NCBI GenBank assembly: GCA_050084515.1
Contig: CM114271.1
Location: forward strand, 29,450,001 to 29,514,000
Reading direction: 5' to 3'
Source of the DNA: Blasia pusilla
Lineage: Eukaryota
Length of the DNA stretch: 64,000 nucleotides
A program made the position numbers and the translations under genes. Below are positions 2,801-50,112 of this stretch, in pieces. Each line of letters begins with the position of its first letter. Position 1 is the stretch's first letter. The notes beneath the pieces are model-generated. The model did not search any database and had not been told where the DNA came from. It saw nothing but the letters and a program-made list of their open reading frames with translations.

Positions 2801-2824
2801 GGTATCACACTTAGTCACCCCAAG

Positions 2825-11139: not shown

Positions 11140-11163
11140 GACTACTCCATCATCATGAATATC

Positions 11164-14870: not shown

Positions 14871-15756
14871 CGAGTTATACACACGAAGTTGTGAGAGATT
14901 TGAGTTTCTGCTCTTCTAGATTTGAAGATTTCAGATCTGAATTTTTCCGAGGCCATAACTTTTAGGTGGAGTGTCATGTAAAGCTGAGATTTGAAGAAAA
15001 CGTGGAGTATAAAAAGGTGCCCTAGCCCTCAAAATTTCAAACACAACAGAGTTATACACACGAAGTTGTGAGAGATTTGAGTTTTTGCTCTTCTAGATGT
15101 GAGGATTTCAGATCTGAATCTTGCCGAGGCCATAACTTTGAGGTGGAGTGTCATATGAAGCTTCAATTGGGAGAAAACGTGGAGTATAAAAAGATGCCCT
15201 AGCTCTAAAAATTGCAAATACAACCAAGTTATACACACGAAGTTGTGAAAGATTTGCGTTTCTACTCTTCTAGATTTGAGGATTTCAAATCTGAATCTTT
15301 CCGAGGCCATAACTTTGAGATGGAGTATCATCTAAAGCTGAGATTTAGAGGAAACTTGGAATATAAAAAGGTTCTCTAGCCCTAAAACTTTCAAGCACAA
15401 CCGAGTTATACACACGAAGTTGTGAGAGATTTGAGTTTCTGCTCTTTTAGATTTGAGGATTTCAAATCTGAATCTTTCCGAGGCCATAACTTTGAGATGG
15501 AGTGTCATATGAAGCTGAGATTTAAAGGAAACGTGGAGTATAAGAAGGTGCTTTAGCCCTAAAAATTTCAAGCACAACCAAGTTATACACACGGAGTTGT
15601 GAGAGATTTGAGTTTCTGCTCTTCTAGATTTGAGGATTTCAGATCTGAATCTTGCCGAGGCCATAACTTTGAGGTGGAGTCTCATATGAAGCTGAGATTT
15701 TGAGACAATGTGGAGTAGCTAGAGGCGTCTTAACCCTCAGAATGTCAAGTACAACC
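14871..15756 (+). repeat. Five tandem 177-bp monomers in the LINE 5' UTR
   Basis: Motif (g/a)agttatacacacg recurs at 14872, 15049, 15226, 15403 and 15580 (period 177); a diverged partial unit follows. Confidence 0.95.
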
Positions 15757-15831
15757 AACTTCTAGAGCAGAAGTTGTGTGGTGTTGGAGATTCAATTATA
15801 CTTTCTGGGATGTAGTGAAGTCGACTACAAG

Positions 15832-16587
15832 ATGACTACTCAAGACGAAATCTTGAATCTAGTGCAAGTGGTCTTGCATGAATTGAAAGAGCTTTGACAA
15901 GAATTCAAGGCACAAGCTTCTTAATTAAACCATGCACATATTCAAATCCGAGAGTTGAAGGCAACGCAAGAGGTTTTGAAGAAAGTGTTGAAAGATAGTT
16001 CTAGTGTGATGCTGGATCTTTCCAAATATGTTGCGGATGTTCAAGAGAAGGCATCATCCTTGGTGACTACTCCCAATAGTTCAGGATTGTATGAGGTTGT
16101 TGAAACTTTAGAAGTGAAAATGAAATCTTATGCTGAAGCTACAAAGGTTGCTCATATCTCTTTGTGTCAAGAGCAAGAGATAGAAAAAGAAAACCAATTT
16201 GCCCGTAGAAAGAATGTGAGAATCTCAGGTCTGCCGAAAACAGAGACCGAAGAGGTGAAGAGTGTTGTCACCAAGTTCTTGGTTGATACACTTCATGTTC
16301 ATAACCCGGACTTGGCTCAAGCTCTCCGTATTGGGAAAACGGGCACACAACCTCGTGCCATTCTAGTCAAGTTTGTTGATCAAATTCAACGTGATACTGC
16401 CATGGCTAACAAGGCCATTCTCAAAGGACGAAGGATATGGTTGGATCCTGATCTCACACCTCTACAAGTCGAAGCTAGGAGAAAGGAGCTTGCAAAGGTC
16501 AAAGAGGCTCAAGAAGCAGGTTTTATTGCTTATCTACGCGATGGTCGAGCAATTGTTACCCAGAGAAAAAGAGAGTTATCAACCTAG
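15832..16587 (+). pseudogene. LINE ORF1 (coiled coil + RRM-type)
   Basis: RRKNVRISGLP...ALRIGK...PRAILVKF...LKGRRIWLDPDLT is typical of LINE ORF1. ATG at 15832 is followed by two in-frame stops before the open part at 15955-16587. Confidence 0.8.
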
Positions 16588-16605
16588 CAATCCAAGAAGC
16601 TGAGA

Positions 16606-19600
16606 GTGTTGATGTGGAATATACGAGGCCTTTCAACAACAAAGTATGTGAGTGCTCTACCAATTTGGGGGATGGCGGATATTATCAATATTTTGGAGAC
16701 TTGGGAACATGAGATCAATACTATTGCAGATATGCAAGGGTTTACTTTGGTGGGATCGACATGGAATCAAAGAAGGCAACGGGCAGGAAGGGGTTATGGC
16801 GATATTGCTACTTTCATCAGGTCTCAATTTCTACCTCTCATACATCTAGAAGATCAAGATATTGAGGGCCAATATCATTGGCTACGTCTTGGTTTGGTTG
16901 GGGGATCTTATTGTTATCTGGCAGTTTGTTATTTTGCACCACTCTCCATGCCTATCTACTCAACACGCACTCACAATCGAAGTCAACCGTTCCATCGATT
17001 TATTGGGGATGTTCTCAAATATCAAAGCAGAGGTGAAGTCTTTCTAGTTGGAGATTTCAATGCTCGCATACGTACTGCTCAATTTACCCAATTCAGTAAT
17101 TCCTTGATTTCTCCTCTTCTCGAAGAATATGCGGATGGTTTGTGGTCTAGAATCTCTTAAAATCTTTCTACAAATCCTTTGACAAAGCATTTTTTAACCT
17201 TTGGAGCCACTTGTAATTTGAAAGTTCTTAATGGAACCTCTCATTTTCCCAACTCTCACTCCAATACGTGTTTCTCCTCTACCGGCGCTAGCACCATCGA
17301 TTATCTTGTGTCCTCACCCACAATAGCTCTCTTATCTCTACATTTGATATTCTAGAACCTCAGCCTGAATCAGATCATGCACCTCTTTTGTTTACACTCT
17401 CACTGTCAAAGGCAATTCCTCTCTCGACATGTCAATCTATTTTAGCTTCTCGCAAGTTTCGCTTAGATCTTGGTAAAACAGATCTTTATACGCTACATTT
17501 ACAAGAACTCTTGACTCGCATTGTATGGAGCCCGGATCCAAACACGGCAAGTATGCAACTAACCGAATTGCTAAAAAACAGTGCATCTAAGTTCTTTTCG
17601 CGCCACAGGGATAGAAGTGCTAGGAGGTTATCTTATAATGGGTGGTTTGACTCTCAATGCAAGCAAGCAAGGGCACGATCAGTTGATAAATCTTTGGATA
17701 TCCCAAGTCGGCTTATTATGACGAGCCTTTACAAATACTTGGTGAAATCTAAGAAACGAGCTTTCTTGCGGCGGAAACAAGAGTCCTTGAGTTTTGGAGA
17801 CGGTTAGTAGTACGGTCTTCAAAACCTATTCTTGATCCCAAGTCTTTGATATCTTTTGCCGAAAAGCTCTATTTCTTCCCCGATGCTACATCTATGCCAC
17901 GTTGTGAAGGAATACCTGGCTTATTCTCTGAAGGAGAGGTGATGACTCAACTAAGAAGATTGGCGAATGGTTAATGTGAGGATTTGGATGGTCTTTCTAT
18001 TGAACTTTTCAAGTGGGGAGGAGATTGTATTGGACCAATCCTCACCAAAGTATTGGGTGATGCTGCTATCTATGGTTTTCCTTCAACCTGGTCGCTACGG
18101 GAGATTGTTCCTATTCACAAATCAGGAAGGAAGGACTTGGTAACAAACTATCGCACTATCATGGTGGGTAGTGGTTTTGCCAAGTTGTTTGGGAAATTGG
18201 TGGAGTCGAAGTTGAGCACATGGACAGAGACTTTCCAAAAGAGAGCACGAGTCCAAGCTGGTTTTCGTCCAACATACAACACCATCGACCATATCTTGGC
18301 CTTGCGTGTTTTATGGGAGAAATCTAAGGGCAATGGAAAAGCTTTGTTTTTCGGCTTCATCGATTTCAAGAAAGCTTTTGATACTGTACCTCATAAGCTC
18401 TTATGGGAAAGGCTGCAAGCCATTGGAGTACCATCAAATCTCCTAGCAGCCGTGGCCACGTTATACCATTCCGTTCGGGCCAAGATCAAAGGTTCACAAA
18501 TTCAAGAGATCTTGAGTACCTTTGGAGTCATTCAAGGTTGCCCTCTCTCTCCTACACTTTTTGGAGTTTTCATAGATGATATCGAAAAGTGGTTGGAGGA
18601 ATGTGATAGTAAAGATGTCAAGCTTGGGGACTTTGTCATCAAAGCTCTATTGTATGCAGATGATATCATATTACTAGCACGTGATGGCATTAGTTTACAA
18701 AAGCACCTCGATACTTTGGCAAGATTTTGTACCCAGAATCAGATGGAGGTTAATATGGAGAAGTCTAAAGTCATTATAGTGGATACTAGATCCAAGTTCT
18801 CGTTCTTTTACAAAGGTTTACAATTAGAACAAGTGAAGAGTTACAAATATCTAGGCATCGATTTCTCTAATGACTATAGTTGGGCACTTTGCGTGCAAAA
18901 GAGAGTAGAAGCTGGTTACAAAGCTCTATATTCATTTTTAAACCGGTGTAGAAGAGCTCATCTTGTATCTTGGAGGCTTAGGAAATTCTTATTTAGGAGC
19001 ATAGTGTTGTCGGTGGTCTTATATGGGACCCAAGTTTGGGGCCCTAGTTGTAAGACGACAGGTTGGGAGTGCGTGGAGAGGGTGCAAAAGATCTTTCTAC
19101 AAGAAGAATTGGGTGTAAGAAACCAAACTCTGTATGCTATTCTTCTTGCGGAAACAGGTTGTCTTCCTCTAGAAGCTGAAGCTCTTTACTTGACCATCAC
19201 TTACATCGCAAGGGTGAGATCTCTTGATGTTTCTCGCCTCCCTCATCAAGCTTTGCGAGCCACACGTTCCATAGGGTGGATGGCGGATGTGGTGACTTGG
19301 TCTTCAAAGTGGAATGTGGCGGAACGCGATTGGGACTTGAAACCAATGACCCTCCGTGAGCATCTACAAAAGCAATTTCTCAACATCATTTGGAGCAGTC
19401 CGGGCACCAAAATAGAGTTTTATCAACTTCATGTTAATCCTATGCTTGTATATTGTGAACAAGGATACCTACTTGCGCGGATCTCCACGTTCTTACGACA
19501 TATTATCGCACGTCATAGAACTCGGTCTCATAGGCTAGGAATTGAGGAAGGACGATGGTTTAAAATTGATAGAAGTGAACGAATTTGTAGGTTATGTGAC

Positions 19601-19781
19601 GGAGAAAATATTGAGGATGAAGAGCATGTGTTTGTTACATGTCCAAGATATGAAGAGATTAGACTAGCTCATAAAATAGATGTGGAGAATTTCTATTCTT
19701 TACTATAGCTAGTGCCTTATGATTTAGGTTGTTATATTAGGGACGTCATTATTCATCGCTCAAGTGCTCTAGGCTGTAGCT
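16606..19781 (+). pseudogene. LINE ORF2 (AP endonuclease, RT, C-terminal CCHC)
   Basis: MWNIRGL, LETW, VGDFNAR, IDY, SDHAPL; NYRTI, QAGFR, FIDFKKAFD, QGCPLSPTLF, LLYADD, YKYLG; ERICRLC...EDEEHVFVTC. Several stops and frameshifts. Confidence 0.92.
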
Positions 19782-22700
19782 AGGAGAGAAGGTCTTAAGG
19801 ATCTTTTTCATGGTCAGTGAATGAATGACTTGAAATGTGTTTTTCAGCCTTTTGACCCTTTGGGTCCCACGGGCTTGATCTATTTACCATTTATCATTTA
19901 CAACTGCGGCGGCCTCCATCTGGGCAACCCCGCACATCCAACCAGGATCCTCCATATCTCTGGCTGCTCCATATGATGTCAATGCCACGGATCCGGCATT
20001 GGGTAACCTCAATGCCATAGCGGCAATCTGCTCCTGTAGCTACTGTATCTAAGCAACCATCCCAGCCTCACGTCCGGCGTCTCCCTCAACGCGTCTAAGT
20101 GGTGTTACTCTACCTCCTCCACGGGCAGCTCCACCACCCTATCAAGCAACTCCAGCTCCTCGTCCCCCAACGGGACCACCTGGTGCACGATCTCTAGGCC
20201 CACCCGGACTGGCTACTCGGTTTGGTGCCCTCTCTGGCCCTCGGTGCGGACATAACTCAGGATGTAAACTGAAACACCTGGCGCGTGTATGAACATACCT
20301 CTGACAATAGTCACACTAATAACCTCCTGGTGCAGCAGTATCTCCTCCTCCATGTTGAGGCACACGTCCATGACCTAGACGAGTGCAATCGCACTGATGA
20401 TGGGCTCCACCACATGACCAACAAGTAATAGTAGGCAGTTGCTACTTAGCTGTATATGAAGGCGCACGTCTCTATGGCACGGCCTCTCCATATCCTCCCT
20501 GATATCCACAGTCGACCTATCTCAGAGTCCAGATTGCTGCATAGGTGGTGCAGACAATCGCAACTGCTCTTGCCTTGAATACATGGTGGCTACGCTCTCC
20601 TCCGCCATGTTGCACTCAATGTTCTTGGCGGTCTTAAAAACATCTCTCAATGTAGGGGAGGTATTCATAAGAATCACCCCCTCCTGCACCCGTGTCCGCA
20701 CCGTCCGGTCCAGCATCGCGTACTATGACTGGATAGCCTGAGCCTCTATCACCCCCTGAGTGACGTTGATCAACCGGCGCAAGCAAGTGTAAGCCTCATG
20801 CAAACTCTTACCCGGGCGCCTTTGGAAGTCGTGGATGCTCCGCAACTTCTCCGCTTGTACCCCTTGGTAGCTCGCCCTCAACTCAACAAAGAACTCAACC
20901 ACAGGGTTAAACTTGGGACGAACCCGACTAGAAGGTACAACTGCTCCCGTGCCACTGACCCCTCCTAAAATGTCACTAGTGGAAGAGAAAGTAGCCTCTC
21001 CTGACTACTCCTCCTTATCTGGGAACGGCTCCATCCATGACATATAATGTGGGTCATAGTAGAGCCTCTACGCCTCGATCTCACATGCATATCTTTGAGA
21101 GAACTCATGGAAATCGTCCATGGGCGCCCCTCTAAATGCAGGAACATATCGTTCCATGCTGTAAACGGGTTGAACTCTCTAGAGTCCCTGGCCCGCTGGG
21201 AGTCGCACCAACTCCTAAACTCTGCTATGAAATTGTGCAACTCAATCGTACCTACTGCACCTGAAAACCTACGGGGTCTTCTACCCTGGTCGTCCATCTC
21301 GTACGCCCAACTGGTAGGACCACTCACAATGTGTGGCAATGTGCTCACAAACTTCTCTACATCCTTCCTCCTTGTCTGAAAATGACACAGAAGGAGGTCG
21401 AGATGGTCCCTCACGTGGAGATCCTCGGAACCTCGCGCCACTCCGCGTAAAACCTCCAAAGCTACTCTCGGGTTCATCACCTTGCCTCTCAAGGTCTCGA
21501 ACGGAAGTCGTGATGACCCTTGTGCCCCTCTCACCCGATCACTCTTGCCTCGCGAGTAATCCCTCAATCACTCATCCCAAATATATGACACTCGAACTAC
21601 ACTCTCCCTCCTTGAGGCGTGTAACAAGCGGCAACAAGCGGCGTAGTGCGGCAAATCGACGAGGCTATCATCTCATCGACAACCTACCCTCAACTCCGGA
21701 CATCCCACACAGGTCTATGTCCCCTAAACTACATACATAAATGATGCTCTCAGCATCCACATACCCAATATCCCCAAATAAACTACCCAAATCCCAGAAT
21801 CCCTCACACGTGAAGGGTAAAGGACCAAAATGGATAACCTGAACACATGTCGATATCGCACCTCAACAATTGCAAATCTCGACCCCAACTCGGTCATGGG
21901 GACAACTCCTTCAATCACCAAGTCAAACTCCTCCCGTGATGTTGCTCAAAACTTCTCGATAGACAGTGCGGTTCCTGCGGAATGGTGCGGCGTTGCACGC
22001 GGCACGGAACGGCTACGAACGACACGACCCCTCGATGGTGGGATGCGGCACTCAGTGGCATACCCTCCTCAATCAACAATAAACCGCCACTGTGCTCCAT
22101 AATGATGGTTCGGCTCCATGATCGAGACGGTCCGGTGCGGCCACAAGAGGCACGGCACGGCAATCAACGACGCGTTGCAGCTACGGGCGTCACGACACGG
22201 TACTCGATCATCGTCGAGCGGCTACCAATCACAACATAGCAGCATGAAATCACAACTCAAACACCATAACCGGAGGTCATCTACCATCATTGGTTCATGA
22301 AAAAACTACGATGATAGTGACGGCCAAAACAAAGTACATGGTGGCGACGCAAGTCAGAGAATCAACGAACGTCGTGGAAGACCATCCACTCCGTAACGGC
22401 AGAAATGGCAACCAAAGGGTGGACAACGGACGGTGGACCATGATGATGATGGTTGACCATTGATGATGACAATGATGGTGATGGTTGACCATTGACGGTG
22501 ACTATAACGGCGACGGCCGCCGGCGGCGTGGCGGCTGGTTTAGGGTTTGAACAATTTAACCCTAAAAATCGCCTAGCAATGGCAATTTTGCAAGAATCAC
22601 CTTAACTTTTTGTTAAAAATTCAAAATTGCACATTTTTTGTTGCACAGCGTGCACAACTTCACAATCTACGAAAAAATTAAAAAATATTTAGAATCAAAC

Positions 22701-23086
22701 ATTCCAGTAAAAATTGACAGGGACTATTGTAAAGCCCAATGTCTCTTTCTCCTATACAAAATTTGGCAGTGCTTCCACGCTGATTTCTCCCAACAAAAAT
22801 GTAAAACCTGTAAAAATACAAATCAGCAAGCTTCATGGTGCTCTTGAGAGAACCGGCATAGGGCAACCCGCCCCCATAATCAATCCCTATCAGAAATCAC
22901 GCAGCGCTTCCGTGCGCCACTCTTCCCCATGAAAAATCAACAAAAGCAAAGAACAATCAAAGCAGCCCTTGCTCCGGTGAGCACTCCCATGAGCCGCTGA
23001 ACAAGGAACATGGTCCCCAACCTACAAAAACAGCAAGTGACCAGCGAGCTCCCCCATCAAGCTCTCTCACTCTCTCATTCTCTTTT

Positions 23087-23531
23087 TGTAAAGTAAGATC
23101 CAATCTCTCTCTACACCATCTCACACCATAACTCTCAAAGTTGTGCACTCTCTCTCATGTCAAACCAAACCCACTCTCCTAGTGAGAGGCTTGGGTTACA
23201 CTCACAAGGCAATGGACCTTAGCTCCGCCGCCTTATGCCAAGAGGTTCAACAAAGAGAAAATGAGCTCTCAAGCTCTCTCTCCTTGAGGTATACCCCTCC
23301 CTTCTCCCAAGCTCTCTCCGTGGTAACCTATTCTCCCAAGTCACCTCCTTGGCTCTTGACCTGATGTAGGAGGTCAAGGGACACTTACCAAAAATAGTAA
23401 ACGAAGGGAAAACCTGCTCTCTCAGGTTTCCCGGGGCCTCAGCAAGTCATCCTCGACCTACTGAGCCTGTTCTCCCCTACTCACGAAGGCGCTCTACTAC
23501 ATCTCACCGATCTCTCCTAAAAGACGTGACA
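23087..23531 (-). repeat. 5' terminal repeat A of copy 1
   Basis: Homologous to 33510-34020, 9254-9415 and (inverted) 44254-44795; begins TGTCAC on minus. Confidence 0.9.
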
Positions 23532-33381: not shown

Positions 33382-34328
33382 GTAATTTGTCTCATCTATA
33401 ATGGCATCTTCTATTCAAGGGTCACCAAATACACACACAAACATGCACGATCCCATGCTAACTCATGGCGTCCAAACAACGAGACAAGAAGTACCAAAAT
33501 ATCTCCAATAAAATAAAATCCAATCTCTCTCACAACACCATAGTTCTCACATGTGTGCACTCTCACATGTCTCTCTCAATATCAAACCAAACCTACTCTC
33601 CTAATGAGAAGCTTGGGTTACACACACAAGGCAAGCAAGACCATAGCTCCGCCGCCTCATGCCAAGAGGTTCAACAAAGAGAAAATGAGCTCTCAAGCTC
33701 TCTCTCCTTGAGGTATACCCTCTCCCAAGCTCTCTCCATGATAACCTATGCTTCCAAGTCACCTCCTTGGCTCTTGACCTAATGTAGGAGATCAAGGGAT
33801 ACTTAAAAAAAATAGAAAGTCGATCATATACTCAAAATGGTACTTACCTAAAATAGTAAGTTCCTCAATATGGCTCCAAACGAGCCGAAACGAAGGGGAA
33901 ACGTGCTCTCTCAGGTTTCTCGGGGCCTCATCAAGGCATTCTTGACCTATTGAGCATGTCCTCCACTACTCATGAAGGCGCTCTACTAGATCTCACCGAT
34001 CTATCCTAAAAGACGTGACAGTTATTGCGCGCATACACATCGCTACACAACATACATCGTTGTCACCGAACACACACACAAACACGCACGATCCCATGCT
34101 AACTCATGGCATCCAAATAACGAGACAAGAAGTACCAAAATATCCAATCGCCCCCCTAGTTGGTGATTAGGTCCCTCTAACTCTGGATAGCCATCTATCC
34201 CTACCTACCATGATATACATCTCTCAGACGCTAAGAGCAAGAAGGTCAGGTGCTCATGTGGCCCCATCGTTAATCACCTTCTTGTCATCCATATCACAGA
34301 CATAAGTTAGAATTTATAACAACATACT

Positions 34329-34469
34329 CTATGTACATTTGGGACACATCCATCGTCCCTGAGGAACCCTAGTGAGAGGTGGCGTCAAACATGCCATATG
34401 CCATCCTCTTGAACACCCATCACAGACTTGCATAGTGGCTGCACCACGGGTGGAACCACACAACATACA
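34329..34469 (-). pseudogene. Intact C4HC3 PHD finger at the integrase C-terminus, copy 2
   Basis: CMLCGSTRGAATMQVCDGCSRGWHMACLTPPLTRVPQGRWMCPKC. Confidence 0.92.
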
Positions 34470-37400
34470 CCGCAATCCTGTAGGAACTACTACTAAGCTC
34501 AGATCAATTGTACCGTCAATGTTTGGAAGATGACATGGCGCACAGTTACGCACATGGTCCTTCCAAACCATACCATCGTGTCCCTCCAATAAGAGAACAC
34601 CCGATGGCAAAACCTCACGCACTCTCAAGATGGTGCGCCCTACAGTCACATCCAACGTCATGGGTGTCGTCTACTGCAAGTAGACATAGTCTCACTGATG
34701 AAACTTCTAGATAGTAGGTTGATAACCATCTCCCCGAATAGTCGCATACCTCAATATATCTCGATATTGCGCAATCGCCAAGTTCTCAAATGCCATGGGC
34801 ATCATTCTCTGAAACAACTTAGCCTTCTGAGAACATGCTCGCATCCATACATCAAGATCATCAAGGTTCAACACCTCACCAACATCTCGACAAATGGCCG
34901 TAGGTAAATCTGGCTCTCGGCCATAAAGCAACAAGTACGATAAGAAAGATGTTGAGGATGCCTGCTTGCTGAATCTGTATCTCATTGCCAACCAAGGCAA
35001 CTAAAGGTCCCAATCTCCTAGGTGATCTCTCTGGAAGCCATACTTGCATAGTCCTCTCTTCATCGTCTGCACAACCGGCTCTTCTAGTCCATCCGCCTCA
35101 GGATGATCTCGCGCAGTAGTGCGGTGGTCGATCAGTGCCTGATCACACAAGGCCTGAAACTCCCGCGGAACTCTGTACCCTGGTCTATCAACACCTCAGC
35201 TAGTGCGCCGTAATCACTCAACACTCAATCTAGGAAGGCATACGCTACTCCCTCATTCACTTTGTCATGCAATGCAACCAACTCTATCCACTTCGAGAAG
35301 TGCTTGACCATCACCAACACATAACGACTATGGCGCTCCGTCAAAGGCAAAGTTCCTACAAAATCCAAACTCCATCTATAACCTAAACCCATGATCAAAA
35401 GTGGATGCAACTGTGGAGTCAGAGCATTGAACGATGCTCGGACTCAATCACACGTTATGCATCAGGCAATAAATTGCTGAACGTCAGTCTGCATGCCTCG
35501 CCACCAATACTGAATCTTGAGCAAGTTGTACGTCCGCTTCACTCCAAAATGACCCAACTCCTCATGGGCATGACGCACCAAACGTGCTCTCTGCAAAGGA
35601 TAGGGCACTACACGCACTCTACCATCCTCCCACACTCGCAACACATATGTGCCATCCCACCGGAACCATCTGGCTCGTTGTAGGATTCGATCTCGCTCCT
35701 TACAAGCTTCTAGATCTAAGAACTCTCCATTAGACCTCACCATCAAAGTCTCAGCAATCTGGCTCTCCATAGCCAACAAGCCCAAATAGGCTGATGCATG
35801 CCATCTTGGCACCAACTCCTCATCACTCTCACCATGCCAATGAGCTCCAGTCGCATCTCGCTAACTTGGGCATGGATTATAGCTCAAACCATCTGCATCC
35901 TGGTTGAGCATCCCAGGTCTATGCACCACTTAGAAGTCATACTCTTGCAACAAAAGAGCCCACCTCGCAAGCTTCCCTGTAAGCTTTTCGGACTCCATCA
36001 ACCACTTAAGTGGCTGATGATCAGTAATGATGGTAAAGGGATTGCCGAATAGATAATATCTGAAATGTGCGACAGTCCACATTGCAGCGAAGCATTCACC
36101 CTCATACGAGCTATACTTTGCCTCTGCAGCATTGTTCAAGCGACTAGCGTAAGCCACCATGAACTTTCTACCATCATCGTCATGTTGGGTAAGCACGTCT
36201 CCAAGCCCCAACATGCTCCAATTGGTATGCAACTAGAAAGGACACCCCATGATCGGTCTCCTTAATATGGGCACGGACGTCAATCTATCTATGAGCATCT
36301 AAAATGCTCTCTCTTGCTCATCCTCCCAGTGTCATTCTTGATCCACCTTGGTCATCAAGGTTAGCGGCTTCCCAATCAAACTGAAACCCTTGACGTACCG
36401 TCGATATAAGTTTGCCAATCCCATGAATGCACGAACTCGACTCACATCTGTAGGGCGTGGAATGCGTGAAATAGCCTCTACCTTTGTTAGTTGCACACCC
36501 ACGCCCCCGTGGTATATTGTATGACCCAAGTACTCAATCTGGTCATAGAAGAACTTGCACTTGCCAGGATGGAGCATCATCCCATGTAACTTCAATTGTT
36601 GAAACACCTCCTCTAGATGTCGCTCATGCTCCTCAACCGTGGCGCTAAAGACTACGATGTCATCAATATAACACCTAGCAAAATCCAGACTTGCCAAGAT
36701 CCTATCCATGACCCTCTGAAACTCAGCCGAGGCATTCTTTAACCTGAATGGTAAGAACCGCCACTGGTACAAACAATCCTTCCCATGAGGATCGATGCCC
36801 CAAAATGTCATCTTCTACGTGTCCTCCAATCTGATAGGCAGCTGATGGTATCCGGCTTGCAAATCCAATGAACTGAAGACCTTTGCATGCCCAATTGCAT
36901 CAAAGATCTCCTCAGGGGTGGGCATGGCATACCCATCGAACTTTGTGTATCGATTGATAGGTCGGTAATCTCCACACATCCGCCTATCCGTCTAGTTGCC
37001 ATGCACATCCTTCTTGGCGGGCATGACAGTGGCAAATGCATACTCTCCATGCAAAATCTCCACTAGTCCTGCTCCAACCAAGTCTTGGCTCCTAATCTGA
37101 ATCAGAGCCCTCTCCATGTCACTATACCTGTAGGATTTTCAGGAGATCGGCGTATCACTCGACAACTCAATGCGGATCCCTGGACCCTTCATCATACCCA
37201 AATCATGCATACTAAATGCAAAACAACTCCTATAACTCCTAAGGAACTGGTGTATCCGATGCCGCTCTCCTCCTATCAACTTAGGGCCCATATCTGGCTC
37301 CCAAGTCTCCATCGTGACTACGGTAGGACTCTCCGACGCGGATGTCGGTGGTTGCTGTGGTGCAACCCCATCTCGGACAATAGAACCCTCATCTCCACGT

Positions 37401-37589: not shown

Positions 37590-38583
37590 GCATCCTCAAA
37601 CGACGTTGCTCACCTACTCCTAAGCTAAAAATCCATGTCAAAAAGTTTAGGTCCATCGCCTGACCCAAGACATGACGTCGTGATGCCTCCGATAGTGATG
37701 GTAGTGCCGTCACTCCTATGGGGAATCCCATCGCTCCCTCTCGCTCATCGGCGTTGGGCTCCACCAACCCCTGTACCTGGTCATCCCAAACCAAGCCAGG
37801 TTTGGCCTCCTTGAATGCATAGGAAGCTAGAAAAACTCACCAATGTGGGAAAGGTTGCTCATGGCATGCCAATCCTATTGACCATGGTCAACGGCGGTCG
37901 ATCATCGTGCCACATTGCTTGTGATCGACGGCCCGGATCCAATATAGAAACCACCAATAAATCGGAGGGACGCTCCACTCTCGCATAAGCCCTCCATAAA
38001 ACCTCATGTGGTATGAAGTTGTTCCACCAAAGAAGCGGGCGGTGTGCTCTAGAACCTACACTCGCAGCATCTAAAAATACTACCATGCGCGCACTTGATG
38101 TGCACTCGTCATCCTACGGGACCTCGAATCGCCCAAAATCAGCACATTGTCCAAAATGTATGTTGGAGAATGAGGTCGATGCTCATGTAAATGTCGCAAG
38201 ATCCGCATCATCTCCCAAAATAACCTAGACCGAGTGTTAGCTAACCCGCTACCTTGTCCAGCACTCGATTGGCCCTGGCGCGGCCAACCAGAAATGGCCA
38301 AGTCTATGGTCCCTACCCGCTCCAAGTCCTGCGCCCCCAACAATGAAATGTCCCTTGGTAGGGAACTTTGGTAACCCTCAATGGTGGATGCAAACAACAA
38401 GTTAAGAAAACATAGGCGGAATAGCACCACATGGTGAAGTGAAGCACACCTTGTAATATCATCAATCTCCACATATAGGTACTGCTGCACGCGCACTCTA
38501 GCGTGCAAAACAGCAGCTAACCTAGTATTGATCCCTCCAAAGAGATCCAACACCCGAATACCCTCCTCTGAGATGCACCACAC
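37590..38583 (-). pseudogene. DNMT3-like C5 cytosine methyltransferase domain inside pol, copy 2 (all motif regions present, frameshifted)
   Basis: IRVLDLFGGINT (I), YLYVEID (II), PRDI (III), DLAISGWPRQG (IV, C>R), SRLFWEMMR, YILDNV (VI), FLDAASVGSRAHRPLLWWNN (VIII), EREGAMGFPIGVT...SEASRRHVLGQAMD (IX/X). Confidence 0.92.
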
Positions 38584-41500
38584 AGTCGGTATGGTGTCAA
38601 AAGGGTCATGGTAGCACTCCTTCCTACGTGGGGTTCCTTTGACCCGTCACACTCAAGTGCAAACATCTCGCTCCACGCGGTCTGCACATGCTCTGTGGCT
38701 AAGCGTCAAAGCTCCTCAATCAAGCCCTAAAGCAGCACCTCTCCTCCACGGACTGATGCGGCTACCATGACACTCCTCTCCATAGAAATGTCAAGAATAG
38801 GAGTATCCTCTGTATGGACATGTCCCTCAATCAAATCACTAGGCCAAGTGACGGCATTGCTAAATGCTGCTAAGGTCGCCATCTCTCCTGGCCGTCGCTA
38901 GATTACTACACCTGTGAATTGAACAGGTAATGAGCTAAGGCGCCCATCACTTGACTGCCATCCTGGTCTGTAGAACGTTGACTCCTCACAATAATCCAGG
39001 GAAAATCCCATCGGATATAACACTGCTCCACCAACCAAGACATCATAGGACTCTGCATCAATCACTATCGCCTTGGCTTGCACCACGGACTCATTTGTAG
39101 GACGTCTCGGGCAAATCCTCACCACGACCTCCTGTCGGGTGATATACTATATGGTACTCGATCCACCCAAGGATATCTATATTTGGATGGACAACGCTCC
39201 ACATCGGCTCTTGTCAAGCCCAATCCTCTGAATGACGCTTTCCCCAACATCAGGGGTTGCGGCTTCTAAATCCAACAAGGCGCGTTGCGTACTAAAAGCT
39301 CTACCTCCAAGACTCACCAACTGGAAGACCTCTTCCCGGTTATCCAACAACACAACACCAAGAGAAGTCATGGCATGCGCTATCACGGATCTAGCGGGCA
39401 TCTCCGCCATCCTAGGTATCGTAGCGTGCCATGAATCTGACGTGGACGGCCCGAGCATCTGCTCAAAGGGCAGGTCCATCACCTTCTCTGCAATCACCTC
39501 TGAACGTGATGCAAGAACTCCAACTCCATGCTCACATAGTGTAGCGGCCACTTGAAAAGCCTCGGTGGGCTCACCTCCCAACATCATAACATCGGAAGTA
39601 GAAAATAAAGGACTGCGGTATACAACGATGGTCGCCCCCAACAACGTGCTTGACACATGCCCCTCCTGAATCAGCAATAAGAGTCGTCGCACTCACTTCT
39701 CCCATCGCCCTCCGTGCCTGCACACCAACAACATCACCAACTCTCCAAGAACTCTGATCAGGACCCATCAATCGGGTCCTCATCGCCTCGAACAACATGA
39801 AAGACTAAGGAAGCCTGGTCTGTTTCCTATTTTTCCCTCGTTGTGGATCCAACTCTACGGCTGCTCCATACGTCACAACTGCGGCAGCCTCCATCTGGGC
39901 AACCCTGCACATCCAACCAGGATCCTCCATATCTCTAGTTGCTCCATATGATATCGATGCCACAAATCCGTCATCGGGTAACCTCAATGCCATAGCGGCA
40001 ATCTGCACTTGTAGGCGTTGTATCTGAACAGCCATCTCAGCCTCATGCCCGGCGTCTCCCTCGACGCGTCTAGGTGGTAGGACTCTACTTCCTCCACAGG
40101 CGGCTCCATCACCCTATCAGGCAACTCCAGCTCCTCGTCCTCCAACGGGACCAACTGGTGCACGATCTCTAGGCCCACCCGCACTGGCTTCTTGCCTTGG
40201 TGCCCTCTCTAGCCCTCGTTCCGGACGTAACTCAAGGTGTAAATAGAAACACCTGGCGCGTGTATGACCATACCTCTGACAGTAGTCACACTGATAACCT
40301 CGTGGTGTAGCACCATCTCCTCCTCCATATCGAGGCACACGTCCATGACCTTGACCAGTGCAATCATGCTGATGATGGGCTCCACCACATGACCAACAAA
40401 TACTCATAGGTGGATGCTGCTAAGCCGCATATGAAGGCGCAGGTCTCTATGGCACAGCCTCTTGGTATCCTCCCTAAGCTCGTGGTGCCATAGTCGACCT
40501 ATCTCGGAATCCACGTTGCTGCACTCGTGGTGTAGACAATCGTGACTGCTCTTGCCAAGAACCCATGGTGGCTACGCTCTCCTCTGCCATGTTGCGCTCA
40601 ATGTTCTCAGTGGTCCTAAAAACATCTCTCAACGTAGGGGAGATGTTCATAAGAAGCACCCCTCCCGCACATGTGTCCACAGGGTCCGATCTAGCATCGC
40701 ATACCATGACTGGATAGCCTAAGCCTCTATCACCCTGAGTGACGTTGATCAACCGGCGCAAGCGAGTGTAAGCCTCATGCAAACTCTCACCCGGCGCCTG
40801 TGGAAGTCGTGGATGCTCCGCAACTTCTCCGCCTGTACCCCCTAATAGCTCACCCTCAACTCACCGAAGATCTCAACCATGCGGTTGAACCTGGGACGAA
40901 CCCGACTAAACGGTGCAACTGCTCTAGTGTGAATGACCCCTCCTAAAACATCACTAGTGGAAGAGGAAGTAGCCTCTTGTGACTCCTCCTCCTCATCTGG
41001 GAACGGATTTGTCCATGACACATAGTGTGGGTCATAGTAGAGTCGCCATGCCTCAATCTCCTGGGCATATCTGTGGGAGAACTCATGGTAATCGTCCATG
41101 GGCGCCCCCTCTAAATGTTGGAACAAACTGTTCTATGCTGCAAACGGGTTGAACTCTCTAGAGTTCCTAGCCCAATGTGAGTCACACCAACTCCTAAACT
41201 CCGCAATGAAGTTGTGTAGCTCTATAGTGTTTACAGCACCTGAAAACCTACGCAGTCCTCTACTCTGGTCGTCCATCTCGTACGCCCAAGTGGTAGGACC
41301 ACTCAATGTATACGGTGGATCACTAAAACATTCCTCTACACGCTCCCCCTCATCTGAAGACGACACAGAAGGAGATCGAGGTGGTCTCTCACGCGGAGGC
41401 CCTCAAAACCTTGCACCACTCTAGGTAAACCCTCCAGAGCTACTCTCAGGTCCATTACCTCGCCTCTCAAAATCCCGAAAGGATGCAGTGATGACCCTTG

Positions 41501-44253: not shown

Positions 44254-45520
44254 TGTCACGTCTTTTAGGATAGATCGGTGAGATCTAGTATAGCGCCTTC
44301 GTGAGAAGTGGAGGACAAGCTCAGTAGGTTAAGGATGACCTGCTGAGGCCTGAGCAGGTTTCCCCTTTGTTTCGGCTCATTTGGAGCCATATTGAGGAAC
44401 TTACTATTTTAGGTAAGTACCATTATGAGTATATGATCGACTTTATATTTTTAGTAAGTGGCCCTTGACCTCCTACATTAGGTCAAGAGCCAAGGAGGTG
44501 ACTTATGGAGAGATCTATCCTAAAAGACGTGACTTATGGTGACTTATGGAGGAGCATAGGTTACTATGGAGAGAGCTTGGGAGAGGGGAAGGGTATACCT
44601 CAAGGAGTGAGAGCTCATTCTATCTTTGTTAAACCTCTTGGCATGAGGCGGCGGAGCTATGGTCCCTTTCCTTGTGTGTAACCCAAGCCTCTCATTAATT
44701 AGGAGAGTGGGTTTGGTTTGACATTGAGAGAGACATGTGAGAGTGCACACATGTGAGAACTATGGTGTTGTGAGAGAGATTGGATCTTATTTTACAAAGA
44801 GAGAATGAGTGAGTGAGAGAGCTTCATGGGGGAGCTCGCTGGTTGCTTGATGTTTGGTGTAGGTTGGGGGACGGTGTTCACCACTTTATGGCTCATGGGG
44901 GTGCTCACCGGAGCAAGAGCCATGCGAGTTTGCTGTTTTGCTTTGCTGATTTTTTGTACGGGAGAGAGGCACGCGGAAGGGCTGCCCAATTTTCTAAAGG
45001 AATTGAGTATGGGGGTAGATTGCTCCATGCCAGTGCTCTCGGGAGCACTATGTAGCTTGCTGATTTGTGTTCTCATAGGTTTTAGATTTTTGTTGGGAGA
45101 AATCAGCGCGGAAGCGCTGTCAAATTTTGTGTAGGAGAAAGAGACGTTGGGCTTTACAACAGTCCCCATTAGTTTTTATTGGAATATTTGATTCAAAATA
45201 TAATATTTTTTGACGTAACTGTAGATCGTGAAGCTATGCACGCTGTGCAATAGACAGTGTGCAATTTGGAGTTACGAGCAAAAATATATGGTCAATCTTG
45301 CAAAACTGCCATTGCTAGGTGATTTTTAGGGTTAAATCGTTCAAACCCTAAACCAGCCGCCACGCCGGCGGCGGTCATCGCCGTCATAGTCACCGTCAAT
45401 GGTCAACCGTCACCATCAATAGTTAATCGTCACCGTCAATAGTCAATCATCATCATTAACGGTCAACTATCACCATCAACGGTCTGCCGTTACCATCAAC
45501 GGTCAACCGTCACCGTCAAC
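44254..45520 (+). mobile_element. 5' end (repeat A + leader) of the DNMT retroelement, inverted relative to copy 2
   Basis: Starts TGTCACGTCTTTTAGG; colinear with the reverse complement of 23531-22440; ends in the 20-bp tandem array where copy 2 breaks off. Confidence 0.9.
45391..45520 (+). repeat. 6.5 x 20-bp tandem repeat (caccgtcaatggtcaaccgt) in the retroelement leader
   Basis: Visible directly; a more CpG-decayed version is at ~22430-22505 in copy 1. Confidence 0.85.
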
Positions 45521-47640
45521 GTGAGTGAATCTGAACAAGATGAAGAGGAGGAAGAGTTACCAAATCTTTACGAAGATATGCGAAAGCAACGAATATTGGC
45601 GATCAAGGCTTGTGAAGCAGCCATCTTTGGTAGTACTGATCGTATGTTACATGTACAGTGAGCGTGACTAGTGGGATTTATAGAACACTTGTGACCGTGA
45701 ATGCTAGTAAGCTTTACTTGTAATGTTGTATACATGGTCATTGACTTGTTTCACTATCTTTTGAAGTGTATCAAATACACTAGGCTCTGGTTGGAGAAAG
45801 AGACATACTTCTCTACCCTAAACCCTAAACCCTAACTCCTAAACCCTTTTGCTTACAGGAGATAAAGTCTACATCTCCTTCAAAGAGTGTCATACACTCT
45901 AGAGATTGCACGCTAGTTTCGTTTGGAGGAAATTAGATTGGCGTATTGTCTTCTGATAAGGAGGAGGATTATGATAGACATGAGGAAGATGAACCTTATC
46001 ATGATCACTTACGCAAGCCATGGGTAATCTTCAACCTCTTTTATTCTCAGATGGTGTTGCACTTATGCAAGTGGTGACTTTGTCTGGATAGAGTATAGAG
46101 CCATTGCCATGAAAGAAAATATTCCTTATCTTGATTCTCTTTTGAATATTGCAAAATCCTCCCAAACGCATAAACGGAGGCTATGAAAGAGAAACTTCTC
46201 CCGATGTGCGTCGACGTTAGAATACGGCTTGAGAGGGTAGAGAGAGAGAGAGAAGGGAAATACAGATTGAGCTTTTTACCCATAGGTTGGACTCCATCAT
46301 TAGGACTTGGAGTTATGCTAGGGATGGACATGATCGCCTTGCACTAGGAGGTAGTTCAGATCCTCCTCTATAAGAAGATGGGTGTGGATCCCTTTGATAG
46401 GGATCCGCTTGATCATGTTCAACACCCTAAGTTTAGTGATAGTATAATTAGAACTATTGTAAAAAGTTGAGCAGCAAATACAAAACAAAAGAATACATCA
46501 AACTTGACTATTTCACGTCTCTTCGAGTCAAATATTCTCTAAATCAGAAAAGAAATACTTACAAATGGCACACACGGTTGTTGTGAGGATACACTACTAC
46601 CAGTCCATTGTTATTGTTTTTGTTGTGCATAAGGCCATGAACCATATCCTCGAGGCGGGGGTGTAGCAAAGATTGCATGTGGACAAAGTCCGTGTCCGTG
46701 GACATCTCTATGTCCATGGACTTATGTCCGTCCTATGGAAGGACTTGTCTGTATGGGCCCCACCTTTCCCTTCGTTCTTACTACCCTTACTTGCCTTCGT
46801 GTTCCATACTCCCCCATTTCTTCTTCCTTCCACCTCCACCTCCACTCCCTCCTCCCTCATTGCTCCTCTCATCCTTGCCTTACCTTCCATCATGGACTAA
46901 AAGTGTGGGTCCCACCTCTTGGAACCCATGTCTGTGGACATGTCCAGACTTGTCCGTCCATGTCCGTCCTAAGGAAGGACTTGTCCATTTTTGTGCAACC
47001 ATGGGTGCAAGCGAAAACCACCAACCTAAAGTGGGATTCCATTGCATTTCGGTAGATGGCCATGCCTCACTAGAAGATGGTGGTAAGAGTGTGATTTAAA
47101 AGTCATGAACACCAAGAAGCAAAGGATAAATATTAAAGCTTTCTCGAATTTGCAAGTAAAGTTTATGTGTTCTTTGTGGATATGCAATAACATTATACAT
47201 GAATGTGTGTTTCCATTCTCATTTTTTAGTACCCAACCAGGTGATCGAGGCTTGTGGGCTTTTCAAGGAAGTTACCAATAGATGGATAGAGCTTCACCAA
47301 GGTAGTGAATGTGGTTATAATAGTTAATCAACTATTGTAATATTATTATGTTAAGTTAGCATTTAATCAATTGTTTTGAATTGGTATGTGTGTGGTTGCG
47401 CTGGGGAGATGAAGTACATCTTCCGCAACCAAAGCTCAGCAGAAATATATTGGATCATGGAGTAGTCTCAGGCTTGAGTGGCCGATACAAGTTCTATGGG
47501 AAGGATATCGGTCTGAGTTTGGTGAAGGTGGACCTAAAAGATACAACGCAACCTGATTACCAACTATGGGAACCAAACACAATGGATGAACATGCCCAAC
47601 TCCCACTGAGCGACGTGATGGGGACCTCTATCATTTGACC
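45521..47640 (+). pseudogene. CACTA ORF2 (TnpA-like), 3' exons
   Basis: Acidic exon SESEQDEEEEELPNLYEDMRKQRI; last exon GVVSGLSGRYKFYGKDIGLSLVKVDL...LWEPN...LSDVMGTSII* resembles the EnSpm TnpA C-terminal domain; lies 1.2 kb from the right TIR. Confidence 0.55.
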
Positions 47641-48454
47641 AGAGTTAAATTTTAAAAAGCTTTCTCATTAGAAACTCTGATTTTGATAACTTTCACAACT
47701 TTGGAGATGGCATAAAGACTTTTTCAAGCCATTATTTTACCTTATATGCAGTGTTTCCATTCAATCTCTATTTTGCTATTTTTCATGTTGAAGAGATTGT
47801 GACTCTTATCTATAAGGACTCCTCAGGTTATGGTTGTATTGTACACAGGGTAGTTATGCATGTACACATCCTTCATCTGCAACATTGTGATTATGATTAC
47901 TACATCTTGAACATCTCACTCACTTGTTATTGTTTGGGAGATTTTAGAGACAACAATGCATCCTGAACATCTCACTCGCTTGCTCTTGTTTGGGAAATTT
48001 TAGAAACAACAAAGACTAATAATATCAGAGCGCACTCTTCTGCAAAAAGAAAGTTTTAATGTTCTCATGAAAACAAAATAACTCACGATAATTGTAGTGT
48101 GACCCTTAAAAATAACTGACATAGTCATTTATATGACTAAGCCAGTCTAGATAATAACCAAATCAATCATTGTATATGACTCATCGAGTCCTTAATGTAG
48201 CTATTGTAGTGAGAACAGTACCAATGTAGTCATTTAAATGACTCAACCACTTAGTACATGACTCGTATAGTTATTTTGAATGACTCACTAAGTTGGAATC
48301 ATAGCATTCTATTACCCGATGAATCATAGAATATGACTCATATAGTTAATGATTATGACACATTAATTTCCAGCACATGTCACAATGACTACAGACATTC
48401 CATTTACACGTGTCGTTGTATGATTGCATGATGAAAATGTTATTTCTAGTGTTG

Positions 48455-48818
48455 TGTCACATGGCTGCATGTGATTTGTTATTCAAATCCTACTCAACAT
48501 GCCATATGATTACATGATATGGCAAGTGTAGTTATAACTGAGTCATTTACGACACATGTCGTTCATTGGTGAAAATAATATCATCCTCATGCCATCTCAT
48601 ACGCGGATGTGGCATAGTGACGTGGCACTTACATGTGGTATATTAGTCATACATCAATGACTAGAGCCATTTACCGATTGGATAGCTCCAGTCATTTCTT
48701 GTAAATGACTTGGTTAATATGACTCTAACGGTCAAGAGTCATTCTTAGTCATTTACCACGAAAAGTGACTCGACCTAGTAATTTGTTGGAGTCATAAAAA
48801 CCAAGATTTCCTCTAGTG
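48455..48818 (-). repeat. Right CACTA terminal inverted repeat / subterminal region
   Basis: Ends in ...ctctagtg; imperfect inverted match to 5540-5920. Confidence 0.85.
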
Positions 48819-50112
48819 AGAGGACGATGAGGAGGTGAAAGGTGACTGACATATTCACGAGGATGGAGTGGTCTTGGATTACCTGCATACTGGCATTGTT
48901 GTAAGCATAGTGGGTGCTAGAGAGCGCGATCGGATCCTACAATAAGCCAGACGATTTTGGTGGGAGGGGACACATGTATTACGAGTTTGGCAAGATGGTA
49001 GAGTACGTGTAGTGCCTCATCCTTTGTAGAGAGCACGTTTGGTGTAGCATGCCCACGAGGAGTTGGGTCATTTTGGAGTGAAGCGGACATACAGCTTGCT
49101 GTAGATACAATTTTGGTGGCGATACATGCAGACTAACGTTCAACCGTTTGTTACAAGGTGCATGGTATCTGATCAGGTCCGGGAATCATTCAATGCTCTG
49201 ACTCCAAAATTGCATCCACTACCGATCATGAGTTTAGGTTATAGATGGAGTTTGGACTTTGCAAGACTTTTACCTTTGACGGAGCGCCATAGTCGTTACG
49301 TGTTGGTGATGGTCGAGCACTTCTCAAAGTGGATAGAGTTGATTGCATTGCCTAACAAAATGAGTGAGGGAGTAATATATGCCTTTCTAGATCGAGTGTT
49401 GAGTCATTATGACATACCAGCAGAGGTTTTGATTAACTAGGGTACATAGTTTCGCAGACAGTTGTAAGCCTTGTGTGATCAGATGCTGATTGACCAGGGC
49501 ACCAATTCGTGAGATCATCCTGAGGCGGATGGACTAGCGGAGAGGGTTATGTAGACGATGAAGAGAGGATTACACAACTATAGCTTGCAAAGAGGTCACC
49601 TAGGAGATCGGGACCTCCAATTGCCGTGGTTGGCGATGGGATACACATTCAACAAGCAGACATCCTTAGTGTCTTTCTCATCGTACTTGCTGCTTTATGG
49701 CCGAGAGCCAAATTTACCTGCATTCTTTTGTCGAGATGATGATGTATAGATGCGAGGATGTTCTCAGAGGGCTAAGTTGTTTCGGAGAGTGATGCCCATG
49801 GCGTTTGAGAACTTGGCGATTGCGCAACATCGGGATGTTGTGCAATTGTCATGTATGCGACTATTCGGGAAGGTGGTTATCAACCGACTATCTCGATGTT
49901 TAATCAGGGAGACTATATCTACTTGCAGCAAATAACACCCACGACATTGGATGTGATTACCGTGGAGAGAGTGTGAGAACTCGTTCTCTCTTTGTTGAAC
50001 CTCTTGCAATGAGGCCGCGGAGCTATGGTCCTCCTTGCCTTGTGTGTGTAACCCAAACCTCTCATTTGGAGAGTCGGCTTGGTTTGACATGAAAGAGAGT
50101 AGGCTTGGTTTG
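48819..50112 (+). mobile_element. Fragment of a third copy of the DNMT/PHD retroelement family (integrase + part of repeat A)
   Basis: MQTNVQPFVTRCMVSDQV...RWSLDFARLLPLTERHSRYVLVMVEHFSKWIEL closely matches copies 1 and 2; 49962-50112 matches repeat A. PHD region deleted. Confidence 0.88.

Follow-up and report, generated by a model that had tools for sequence, protein, structure and literature searches.

Why should the integrase of a retrotransposon that encodes its own DNA methyltransferase (DNMT) end in a PHD finger? The question is raised by a 64 kb stretch of the Blasia pusilla genome (contig CM114271.1, positions 29,450,001 to 29,514,000; the whole stretch is referred to below as the window), which contains three copies of a Ty3/gypsy long terminal repeat (LTR) retrotransposon, A and B on the minus strand and C on the plus strand. 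The element has the order Gag, protease (PR) and DNMT3-like methyltransferase, followed by a UAG codon and then reverse transcriptase (RT), RNase H (RH), integrase (IN) and PHD. Its assignment to Ty3/gypsy is based on the Pfam domain order PR-RT-RNaseH-IN, zinc knuckles in Gag and direct LTRs in copy A. An earlier reading made from the letters of the window (the sequence-only reading) proposed that the finger takes the place of a chromodomain and may direct integration, and perhaps methylation, to chromatin lacking H3K4 methylation. The analysis described here partly supports that interpretation as a whole. By sequence and predicted fold, the finger resembles those that bind the free N-terminus of histone H3, and it may serve as a tether for integration.

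The PHD finger of copy B

The finger is best preserved in copy B, where a stop-to-stop frame of 113 aa (34329..34670, minus strand, by translation) contains a PHD at 34335-34469 with a complete C4HC3 ligand pattern. The ligands run from Cys1 (34467-34469) to the last Cys (34335-34337) with the spacing C-x2-C-x11-C-x2-C-x4-H-x2-C-x14-C-x2-C. The frame ends in CMLCGSTRGAATMQVCDGCSRGWHMACLTPPLTRVPQGRWMCPKC, followed by a Thr and a TAG stop codon (34329-34331), and the interval 34329..34469 (minus) thus corresponds exactly to PHD, Thr and TAG, the finger being the end of the pol readthrough product. The match to Pfam PF00628 spans profile positions 1-47 of 47 with an E value of 2e-10 and 41 bits (cutoff 24), a score far beyond chance. 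Full ligand pattern, profile match and a stop one residue later bear out the sequence-only reading in that a perfect C4HC3 PHD ends the polyprotein. Its decayed twin, also reported by that reading, was recovered in copy A at 9739-9873 (minus; Pfam PHD E 5.3e-8; translation), where two zinc ligands have been lost, the fourth Cys being a Tyr and the last Cys being replaced by a stop.

Translation and alignment place the start of the finger about 20 residues past the SH3-like C-terminal module of the integrase. No chromodomain was detected by Pfam in the C-terminal frame of the window element, which stops one residue past the PHD. A C5 DNA methylase domain (PF00145) lies upstream on the same strand, and the proposal of a reader and a writer within one retroelement therefore holds.

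A near-invariant H-x3-C-x2-C-H motif (DHVRNCAPCH) lies about 25 residues before the PHD, at the end of the SH3-like module (window ~34530-34560, minus). From its sequence this may be a further zinc site.

Relatives and conservation of the finger

A search with the 113-residue frame returned 51 longer proteins of 46-79% identity, with PF00628 precomputed for 43 of them; the named sources are Marchantia polymorpha, Calypogeia fissa and Sphagnum fallax. Thirty of these close relatives have the strict C4HC3 pattern, and in 28 of the 30 the protein ends 1-14 residues past the finger (43 and 51 residues in the other two). Relatives were also sought exhaustively with P0016, a relative covering RH-IN-PHD, and the best 150 of the 50%-identity representatives were retained. 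Nearly all of these align through the PHD; by pattern, 119 have the full PHD, 80 the DNMT and 64 both. The named members of the matched clusters include Haematococcus lacustris and Scenedesmus sp.

A further sample was obtained from the methyltransferase. The decayed DNMT of the window gave a single long relative as a query, and the intact relative P0054 was used instead. Since the seed of this search was the DNMT of P0054, the sample is unbiased for the PHD. It comprises 31 long proteins, 22 with an integrase core, and PF00628 is listed for 17 of those 22. The full C4HC3 pattern is present in all 14 evaluable proteins of the DNMT-seeded set and in 114 of the 121 evaluable proteins of the P0016 set, the seven exceptions being visibly damaged or variant PHDs. 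As judged from these alignments, the finger is nearly universal across a large clade of the green lineage that extends from chlorophytes to liverworts.

Ratios of non-synonymous to synonymous substitution (dN/dS) were pooled over all 35 gapless metagenome loci, with non-independent pairs and with no filter for intactness, as filtering for an intact PHD would have been circular. The pooled value was 0.46 for the PHD and 0.58 for the PHD without its eight ligands, compared with 0.75 for the linker before the PHD and 0.64 for the SH3-like part. By these values the constraint on the finger is no weaker than that on the C-terminal module of the integrase.

Several annotated Marchantia polymorpha proteins belong here. 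Five 'PHD-type domain' proteins of 216-222 aa (P0003, P0005, P0012, P0024 and P0028) share a start at an internal integrase Met (MGYRF/MEYRF) and end after the PHD. P0022 (612 aa), the sixth such annotation, represents a longer deleted copy of this element. At two loci (L001 and L003) the integrase match is uninterrupted and a PHD is present, with no RT or DNMT upstream. The short proteins and these loci could be element remnants that have been annotated as genes, or an integrase C-terminus-PHD derivative.

What kind of PHD finger

The finger was compared with solved structures by sequence (phmmer against the PDB; 90 matches, of which the best 60 were examined). The best matches among these 60 are the PHDs of CHD4, PHF12, KDM5B PHD1, KDM5A PHD1, Lid, KAT6A/B and DPF2/3, with ATXR5, PHF21A (BHC80), AIRE, BAZ2A/B and UHRF1 as further matches; the alignment with KDM5B PHD1 is gapless over 45 residues (E 8e-13). 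An AlphaFold2 model has a predicted local distance difference test (pLDDT) score of 70-84 across the PHD, and Foldseek superposed it on solved PHDs at a root-mean-square deviation of 0.7-1.6 Å over 45-49 residues with a probability of 1.00. The model therefore predicts a PHD fold. The top fold matches were BAZ2A/B, DPF3b, UHRF1, ATXR5, MOZ/MORF, BHC80, KDM5B PHD1 and AIRE, and many of the matched entries are titled as complexes with unmodified H3. Fingers of the ING, BPTF, TAF3 and PHF8 types were absent from the best 60 of 90 sequence matches and from the 50 fold matches listed. The resemblance to PHDs that read unmodified H3 tails, noted earlier from the residue pattern, is thus borne out by the nearest solved relatives in both sequence and fold.

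The contacts of KDM5B PHD1 with H3K4me0, taken from the portions of PMC4225485 used here, were mapped onto column counts of 164 family PHDs. In KDM5B, D328 contacts R2, W351 lies at the A1 site, D308 contacts K4, E321 contacts T3 and the strand L324-L326 pairs with the H3 peptide; an acidic residue (D308 in KDM5B, E488/D489 in BHC80) forms a hydrogen bond or salt bridge with unmethylated K4 (PMC4225485). The R2-binding Asp is present in 152 of the 164 family PHDs (D84 of the window frame) and the equivalent of W351 is Trp in 155 (W107), while the hydrophobic strand, M/L/L in the family as a whole, is M-Q-V in the window. Apart from the zinc ligands, no positions of the family are better conserved than these, namely the Asp of CD.C, the Trp of G.W.CP.C and the hydrophobic strand. 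Acidic residues at the positions that would face K4 and T3 are common in the wider family: the residue at -3 from Cys1 is Asp or Glu in 79 of the 164 PHDs and Gly in the window, and the E321 column has Glu, within a P-D-D-E loop, in 56. On sequence grounds, binding of the H3 N-terminus is plausible for the whole family, and discrimination in favour of K4me0 is likely for the majority of it and uncertain for the branch to which the window element belongs.

Domain architectures and the chromodomain

Two architectures were evident when domains were mapped in 177 relatives. The dominant one is RT-RH-DNMT-IN-SH3-PHD, with 52 full examples, while the window element is of the type PR-DNMT-RT-RH-IN-SH3-PHD. 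A PHD is present in 141 of the 177, and DNMT and PHD occur within one predicted protein in 84. When only the 54 evaluable proteins covering the RH-IN-PHD region are considered, 50 have a DNMT; those without it comprise two in which RT is preceded by at least 879 residues and a further two with a gap of 550-620 residues between RH and IN. Metagenome DNA gave a similar picture: of 80 loci, 36 have at least 5 kb upstream of the PHD, RT is present in 30 of the 36 and a DNMT in 26 of these 30. The association of PHD with DNMT, followed here across related elements as the sequence-only reading had suggested, is therefore strong but not obligatory. A PHD occurs without a DNMT in P0091 and P0099, and a DNMT occurs with no PHD after the SH3-like module in P0243 and P0180.

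The PHD-bearing proteins P0127 and P0142 have an insert of 550-620 residues between RNase H and integrase that gives no detectable DNMT signal. This insert may be a degenerate methyltransferase-like domain.

Two of the 177 relatives, P0249 and P0195, have a chromodomain, in both cases downstream of the PHD. In P0249 (residues 1426-1544) it has a Pfam E value of 4e-12 and begins about 25 residues past the finger. The end of the integrase can therefore, to judge from these sequences, carry both readers in tandem. The proposal that the PHD replaces the chromodomain stands as regards position, since both are found at the integrase end, but is not supported as regards replacement, and the PHD is better described as an addition than as a proven replacement because the two relatives have both domains. 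None of the 10 nearest relatives with neither PHD nor DNMT has a chromodomain at E <= 1e-5; these are chimeric gypsy models with a Tf2-type SH3/Integrase_p58_C domain, and the direction of any change between PHD and chromodomain therefore cannot be inferred from them.

Many relatives do not end at the finger. In 117 of the 141 PHD-bearing relatives more than 100 residues follow it, and 80 proteins share a conserved tail of about 355 residues (e.g. P0245 residues 1627-1981). The tail has no Pfam match at E <= 1 and no match in a PDB sequence search at E <= 10, and Atlas gave weak leads only (0.86-0.87); no remnant of it was found in the window (best E 4). Its structural model (pLDDT 88.5) consists of a small beta-barrel and a Rossmann domain, the best fold matches of the latter being N6-adenine DNA methyltransferases (BpuSI, M.BseCI, M.TaqI and type I M subunits) and METTL5. 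The motifs DP(F/W)xGxG and SP(P/W)F are retained in about half of 24 aligned members. The tail, as modelled, may be a second, unrecognized methyltransferase-like domain of gypsy elements that carry DNMT3 and PHD.

A conserved UAG between DNMT and PHD

The layout of an intact element is seen in the metagenome relative L051, in which open reading frame (ORF) 1 (976-5085) encodes PR and DNMT and ORF2 (5086-8229) encodes RT-RH-IN-PHD. In both L051 and L045, Gag-PR-DNMT and RT-RH-IN-PHD are in the same frame with one UAG between them (L051 5083-5091, L045 4661-4669), in the contexts UAG CAG UUA and UAG CAA UCA. No terminal repeats were found on the intact metagenome contigs. Among 37 loci with a match to the start of ORF2, 21 show a TAG or TAA at the junction with CAA or CAG as the next codon, and in 19 of the 21 the letters after the stop are CAACCC or CAACCT. 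Proteins of the ORF1 type (P0232-P0237) have the C-termini ASSSN (four), APSTN (one) and PSFSD (one), and those of the ORF2 type begin MPA.... In the window, pattern search and alignment place the junction of copy A at 12769..12777 (minus; TAG CAA CCA), and that of copy B at 37344..37357 (minus), which reads CAG CAA CCA where copy A and the relatives have TAG CAA CCN. The context resembles the UAG-CAR-YYA leaky-stop motif of plant viruses.

These comparisons show that the active ancestor encoded Gag-PR-DNMT3-like, UAG and RT-RNaseH-IN-PHD in the same frame. We infer that the DNMT would have been made with Gag, in excess, and RT-RH-IN-PHD only by readthrough. In this architecture the distance from DNMT to PHD is about 1,100 residues, across the UAG, RT, RNase H and IN.

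Possible roles of the finger

The reading favoured here, to which we give about an even chance on the evidence of sequence and model, is that the PHD is an H3-tail tether for integration, forming the C-terminal chromatin-tethering module of a Gypsy-DNMT3-type integrase. Readthrough of the UAG would yield the long polyprotein, from which the protease would free IN-PHD, and within the intasome the finger would dock on H3 tails of nucleosomes at the target site. There A1 would occupy a pocket formed by the conserved Trp, R2 would be contacted by the CD.C Asp, and the H3 peptide would be paired with the M-L-L/V strand by beta-augmentation. Integration would then be biased towards chromatin in which the H3 N-terminus is not K4-trimethylated, i.e. 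away from active promoters, a role analogous to that of the chromodomain in chromoviruses. The DNMT3-like enzyme, produced in excess together with Gag, would have its own separate activity on the cDNA or the newly inserted copy and would not be steered in cis by the PHD.

Several observations weigh against the tether. One concerns the window's own lineage, in which the D308 equivalent is Thr or Gly and the E321 equivalent Ala, both non-acidic; the window reads T-G-L-R before Cys1 and TRGAA in the C2-C3 loop, where the wider family has P-D-D-E. H3K4me0 specificity is less secure for the window copy because the acidic residues that contact K4 and T3 have been replaced, and K4me0 discrimination may have been lost or altered in this lineage. 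The dN/dS signal, modest in size, was obtained from pairs that are not independent and is diluted by many dead copies, and the AlphaFold2 model is of mediocre quality overall (mean pLDDT 61.7). Since P0243 and P0180 have a DNMT and no PHD, the finger is also not indispensable.

The loss of acidic residues, with a basic or small loop in their place, would suit a finger that does not read histones at all, but is a zinc-stabilized protein or nucleic-acid module engaged in integrase multimerization, host-factor binding or contacts with cDNA or RNA. The H-x3-C-x2-C-H motif directly upstream would fit with this, as it hints at a larger zinc-containing unit at the integrase C-terminus, and PHDs with non-histone ligands are known, one fold match (6iiw) being the UHRF1 PHD-PAF15 complex. 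Set against these points, the residues that would hold A1 and R2 of H3 are precisely the most conserved non-ligand positions of the family, and the closest solved relatives among the matches listed all bind the H3 N-terminus; a non-histone role is rated as somewhat improbable. The same loss leaves the K4 site undefined, so that the finger might instead read a modified mark, H3K4me3 or another methyl-lysine, and target integration to marked chromatin. However, H3K4me3 readers carry a cage Trp two residues before the zinc-binding His, where 146 of the 164 family PHDs have a Gly, and no finger of the ING, BPTF, TAF3 or PHF8 type was found in the match sets described above. Even with the precedent of cnidarian retrotransposon PHDs orthologous to PYGO, which is called an H3K4me reader in the part of bioRxiv 10.1101/2021.11.30.470311 drawn on here, reading of a modified mark is very improbable.

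The co-occurrence of DNMT and PHD, far more often than not (84/177, 50/54 and 26/30), speaks for a further possibility, namely that the finger acts like the ADD domain of animal DNMT3, binding H3K4me0 and recruiting or activating the DNMT, which would confine methylation of the element or its surroundings to unmarked chromatin. In the architecture RT-RH-DNMT-IN-SH3-PHD the DNMT is directly N-terminal to the integrase and could remain fused to IN-PHD. The window architecture is different: the DNMT precedes the conserved stop codon and the PHD lies far downstream behind RT, RNase H and IN. As the two are at opposite ends of a protease-processed precursor, and would after processing be separate proteins in unequal amounts, steering of the DNMT in cis by the PHD is unlikely here, and the idea of the sequence-only reading that the finger might also guide methylation fares correspondingly poorly. 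The elements with only one of the two domains (P0091 and P0099; P0243 and P0180) also argue against such coupling, which overall is considered distinctly unlikely.

A broader joint reading can be put forward, which we regard as unlikely. It would see here an ancient and widespread green-lineage clade of Ty3/gypsy elements with a DNMT3-type writer, an H3-reading integrase PHD and, in most chlorophyte-type members, a further beta-barrel plus an N6-adenine-methyltransferase-like domain without a Pfam match. DNMT, IN, PHD, barrel and MTase (methyltransferase), which are contiguous in the commonest architecture, could together form an integrase/methylase guided by its reader, inserting into H3K4-unmethylated chromatin and immediately marking the new copy, and the streptophyte branch of the window would have been pared down to DNMT3 and PHD. 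If true, this would amount to a transposon's own equivalent of the ADD-DNMT3 logic seen in animals.

Retrotransposons that carry DNA methyltransferases were discovered recently and are under active study. If DNMT3-bearing gypsy elements of the green lineage nearly always carry a histone-tail reader on the integrase, they would offer a tractable system for studying the choice of chromatin at insertion and also whether a transposon sets its own methylation state. Marchantia has genetics, chromatin maps and, apparently, many copies of the element. For annotation, several Marchantia 'PHD-type domain' proteins look like integrase C-terminal fragments of this family.

Element copies and neighbouring genes in the window

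Copies A and B are 81-85% identical (blastn). Copy B occupies 33509-43614 (minus; repeat, blastn and Pfam evidence). Its Gag and aspartic protease region lies at 38664..41400 (ORF translations; tblastn with P0054 residues 21-476), with two CCHC-type knuckles in the frame 40117-40419, and is followed by the DNMT3-like C5 cytosine methyltransferase at 37750..38646 (PF00145 E 2.6e-6 at 38080-38646; tblastn). The latter is decayed in comparison with intact P0054, with PCQ changed to PRQ, ENV to DNV, and in-frame stops. Reverse transcriptase (36332-36991; RVT_1 E 2e-20) and RNase H (35930-36232; RT_RNaseH E 1.2e-32) precede the integrase (34470..35860; Integrase_H2C2 E 6.6e-14, rve E 6.5e-4; tblastn with P0035), all on the minus strand. 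The integrase comprises an H2C2 zinc domain (in the frame 35462-35860), a DDE core (35225-35443; rve) and an SH3-like/GPY-F-type C-terminal module, and is interrupted by stops and a frame change. The PHD stop is followed by a 3' untranslated stretch (34021-34328) and a fragment of the 3' LTR (33509..34020; 84-89% to the copy A LTR by blastn), which starts TGTCACG at 34020; in copies A and B alike this start is about 310 bases past the PHD stop.

Copy A (9257..23531, minus; repeat families and blastn) has its coding region split into 9739-14870 and 19900-22432 by a LINE-type (long interspersed nuclear element) insertion at 14871-19899. Its LTRs, a 3' fragment at 9257-9415 and a 5' LTR of about 1.09 kb at 22443-23531, are in direct orientation and both start TGTCACG. 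Copy C (44254..50100, plus; blastn, tblastn) is heavily deleted and consists of a 5' LTR (44254-45456), an integrase fragment (48828-49959) and an LTR fragment (49965-50100), the segment for the PHD having been lost. A DIRS-like inverted-repeat structure around copy B was considered and rejected, as the inverted block 44254-45456 is the 5' LTR of copy C, which lies head-to-head on the plus strand, and the LTRs of copy A are direct.

All copies in the window are dead and now inactive. In the stretches of copy B matched by intact P0054 and P0035 (tblastn) there are 26 in-frame stops and no fewer than three frame changes, and the intact PHD of copy B is therefore a small target that has survived, not evidence of selection on this copy.

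The LINE-type element inside copy A has ORFs at 14865-15872 and 15925-19708 (plus; Pfam RVT_1 and Exo_endo_phos), with a 177 bp tandem repeat in five copies at the 5' side of the insertion. Elsewhere in the window are a CACTA-type transposase (Transposase_21 and DUF4218; 25853-28116, plus) and two apparent host genes, encoding a Dabb stress-responsive barrel (51550-52428, plus) and a DUF599 protein (58181-58804, minus). As judged from the transposase and these two genes, the neighbourhood is plant-like.

Comparison with known systems

Gypsy elements with DNMT3 have been published for Klebsormidium nitens as KnitGypsy-Dnmt3 (de Mendoza et al., 2018; PMC5890265), in an article whose text proposes that the element DNMT acts on the cDNA or on the freshly inserted copy. 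The window element likewise is a Ty3/gypsy element with a DNMT3-type methyltransferase in its coding region, and on sequence comparison it is a member of this type. The DNMT of intact P0054 has the catalytic domains of DNMT3A/3B/3C as its best PDB matches (E 3e-9), and its residues 500-782 retrieved the K. nitens protein KFL_009030040 (P0255) at E 1.9e-37. The latter has the domain order of the window element, PR-DNMT-RT-RH-IN-SH3-like module, and is a partial model that ends about 60 residues short of the PHD site. The published element and that of the window appear to differ in their repeats, which are DIRS-like (A-coding-B-A-B) in KnitGypsy-Dnmt3 as described in PMC5890265 and ordinary direct LTRs in copy A, and they differ in reach, as the published family is extended here from one charophyte to liverworts, mosses and chlorophytes.

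'PHD' is absent from the text and three supplementary files of PMC5890265 (the figures were outside that search). A bioRxiv preprint (10.64898/2026.05.21.726589) gives 'streptophytes (Gypsy-DNMT3)' as previously known, and its science text, in the portion drawn on here, does not mention a PHD. The EpiLTRs and DAM-LTRs described in that portion are similar to the present elements in joining DNA methyltransferases with a chromatin-reader domain, but the EpiLTRs combine a chromodomain with DAM and a DNMT4-related DNMT, whereas PHD and DNMT3 are combined here. The PHD is a recurrent accessory domain of transposable elements in general: in the passages drawn on here, fusions between transposable elements and PHDs are surveyed in bioRxiv 10.1101/2021.11.30.470311, PMC6673714 and PMC8557442 cite the PHD-bearing retrotransposons REM1 and CR1, and a figure legend of PMC9940879 lists a PHD for Chlamydomonas Gypsy-7a. 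The literature search returned no description of a PHD in DNMT3-bearing gypsy elements. As far as the literature was searched, the near-constant PHD at the integrase end of Gypsy-DNMT3 elements and the reach of the family from chlorophytes to liverworts both appear to be new.

Among host proteins, the best matches in sequence and fold are the PHDs that read unmodified H3 (KDM5A/B PHD1, BHC80/PHF21A, AIRE PHD1, BAZ2A/B, DPF3b/MOZ PHD2, UHRF1 and ATXR5). The window finger has in common with them the CD.C Asp, the G.W.CP.C Trp, the hydrophobic beta-strand and the CL.PPL..VP motif, and differs in that the acidic residue forming the salt bridge with K4 is missing from its lineage. The ADD domain of animal DNMT3 is a Cys-rich, PHD-like reader of H3K4me0. 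There, as in the window element, a PHD-type finger and a DNMT3-type catalytic domain belong to one genetic unit, but the reader of the window element is not adjacent to its DNMT, a stop codon, RT, RNase H and IN intervening. No GATA-like half of an ADD was found at the finger, where Pfam gives only PF00628. Chromoviruses offer the closest parallel in position, with a domain of histone-reader type at the very end of the integrase, immediately past the SH3-like/GPY-F module, and a presumed role in tethering to the integration site; the chromovirus MAGGY targets H3K9me, as cited in the part of bioRxiv 10.1101/2021.11.30.470311 drawn on here. The domain that occupies this place is a chromodomain in chromoviruses and a PHD finger in the window element.

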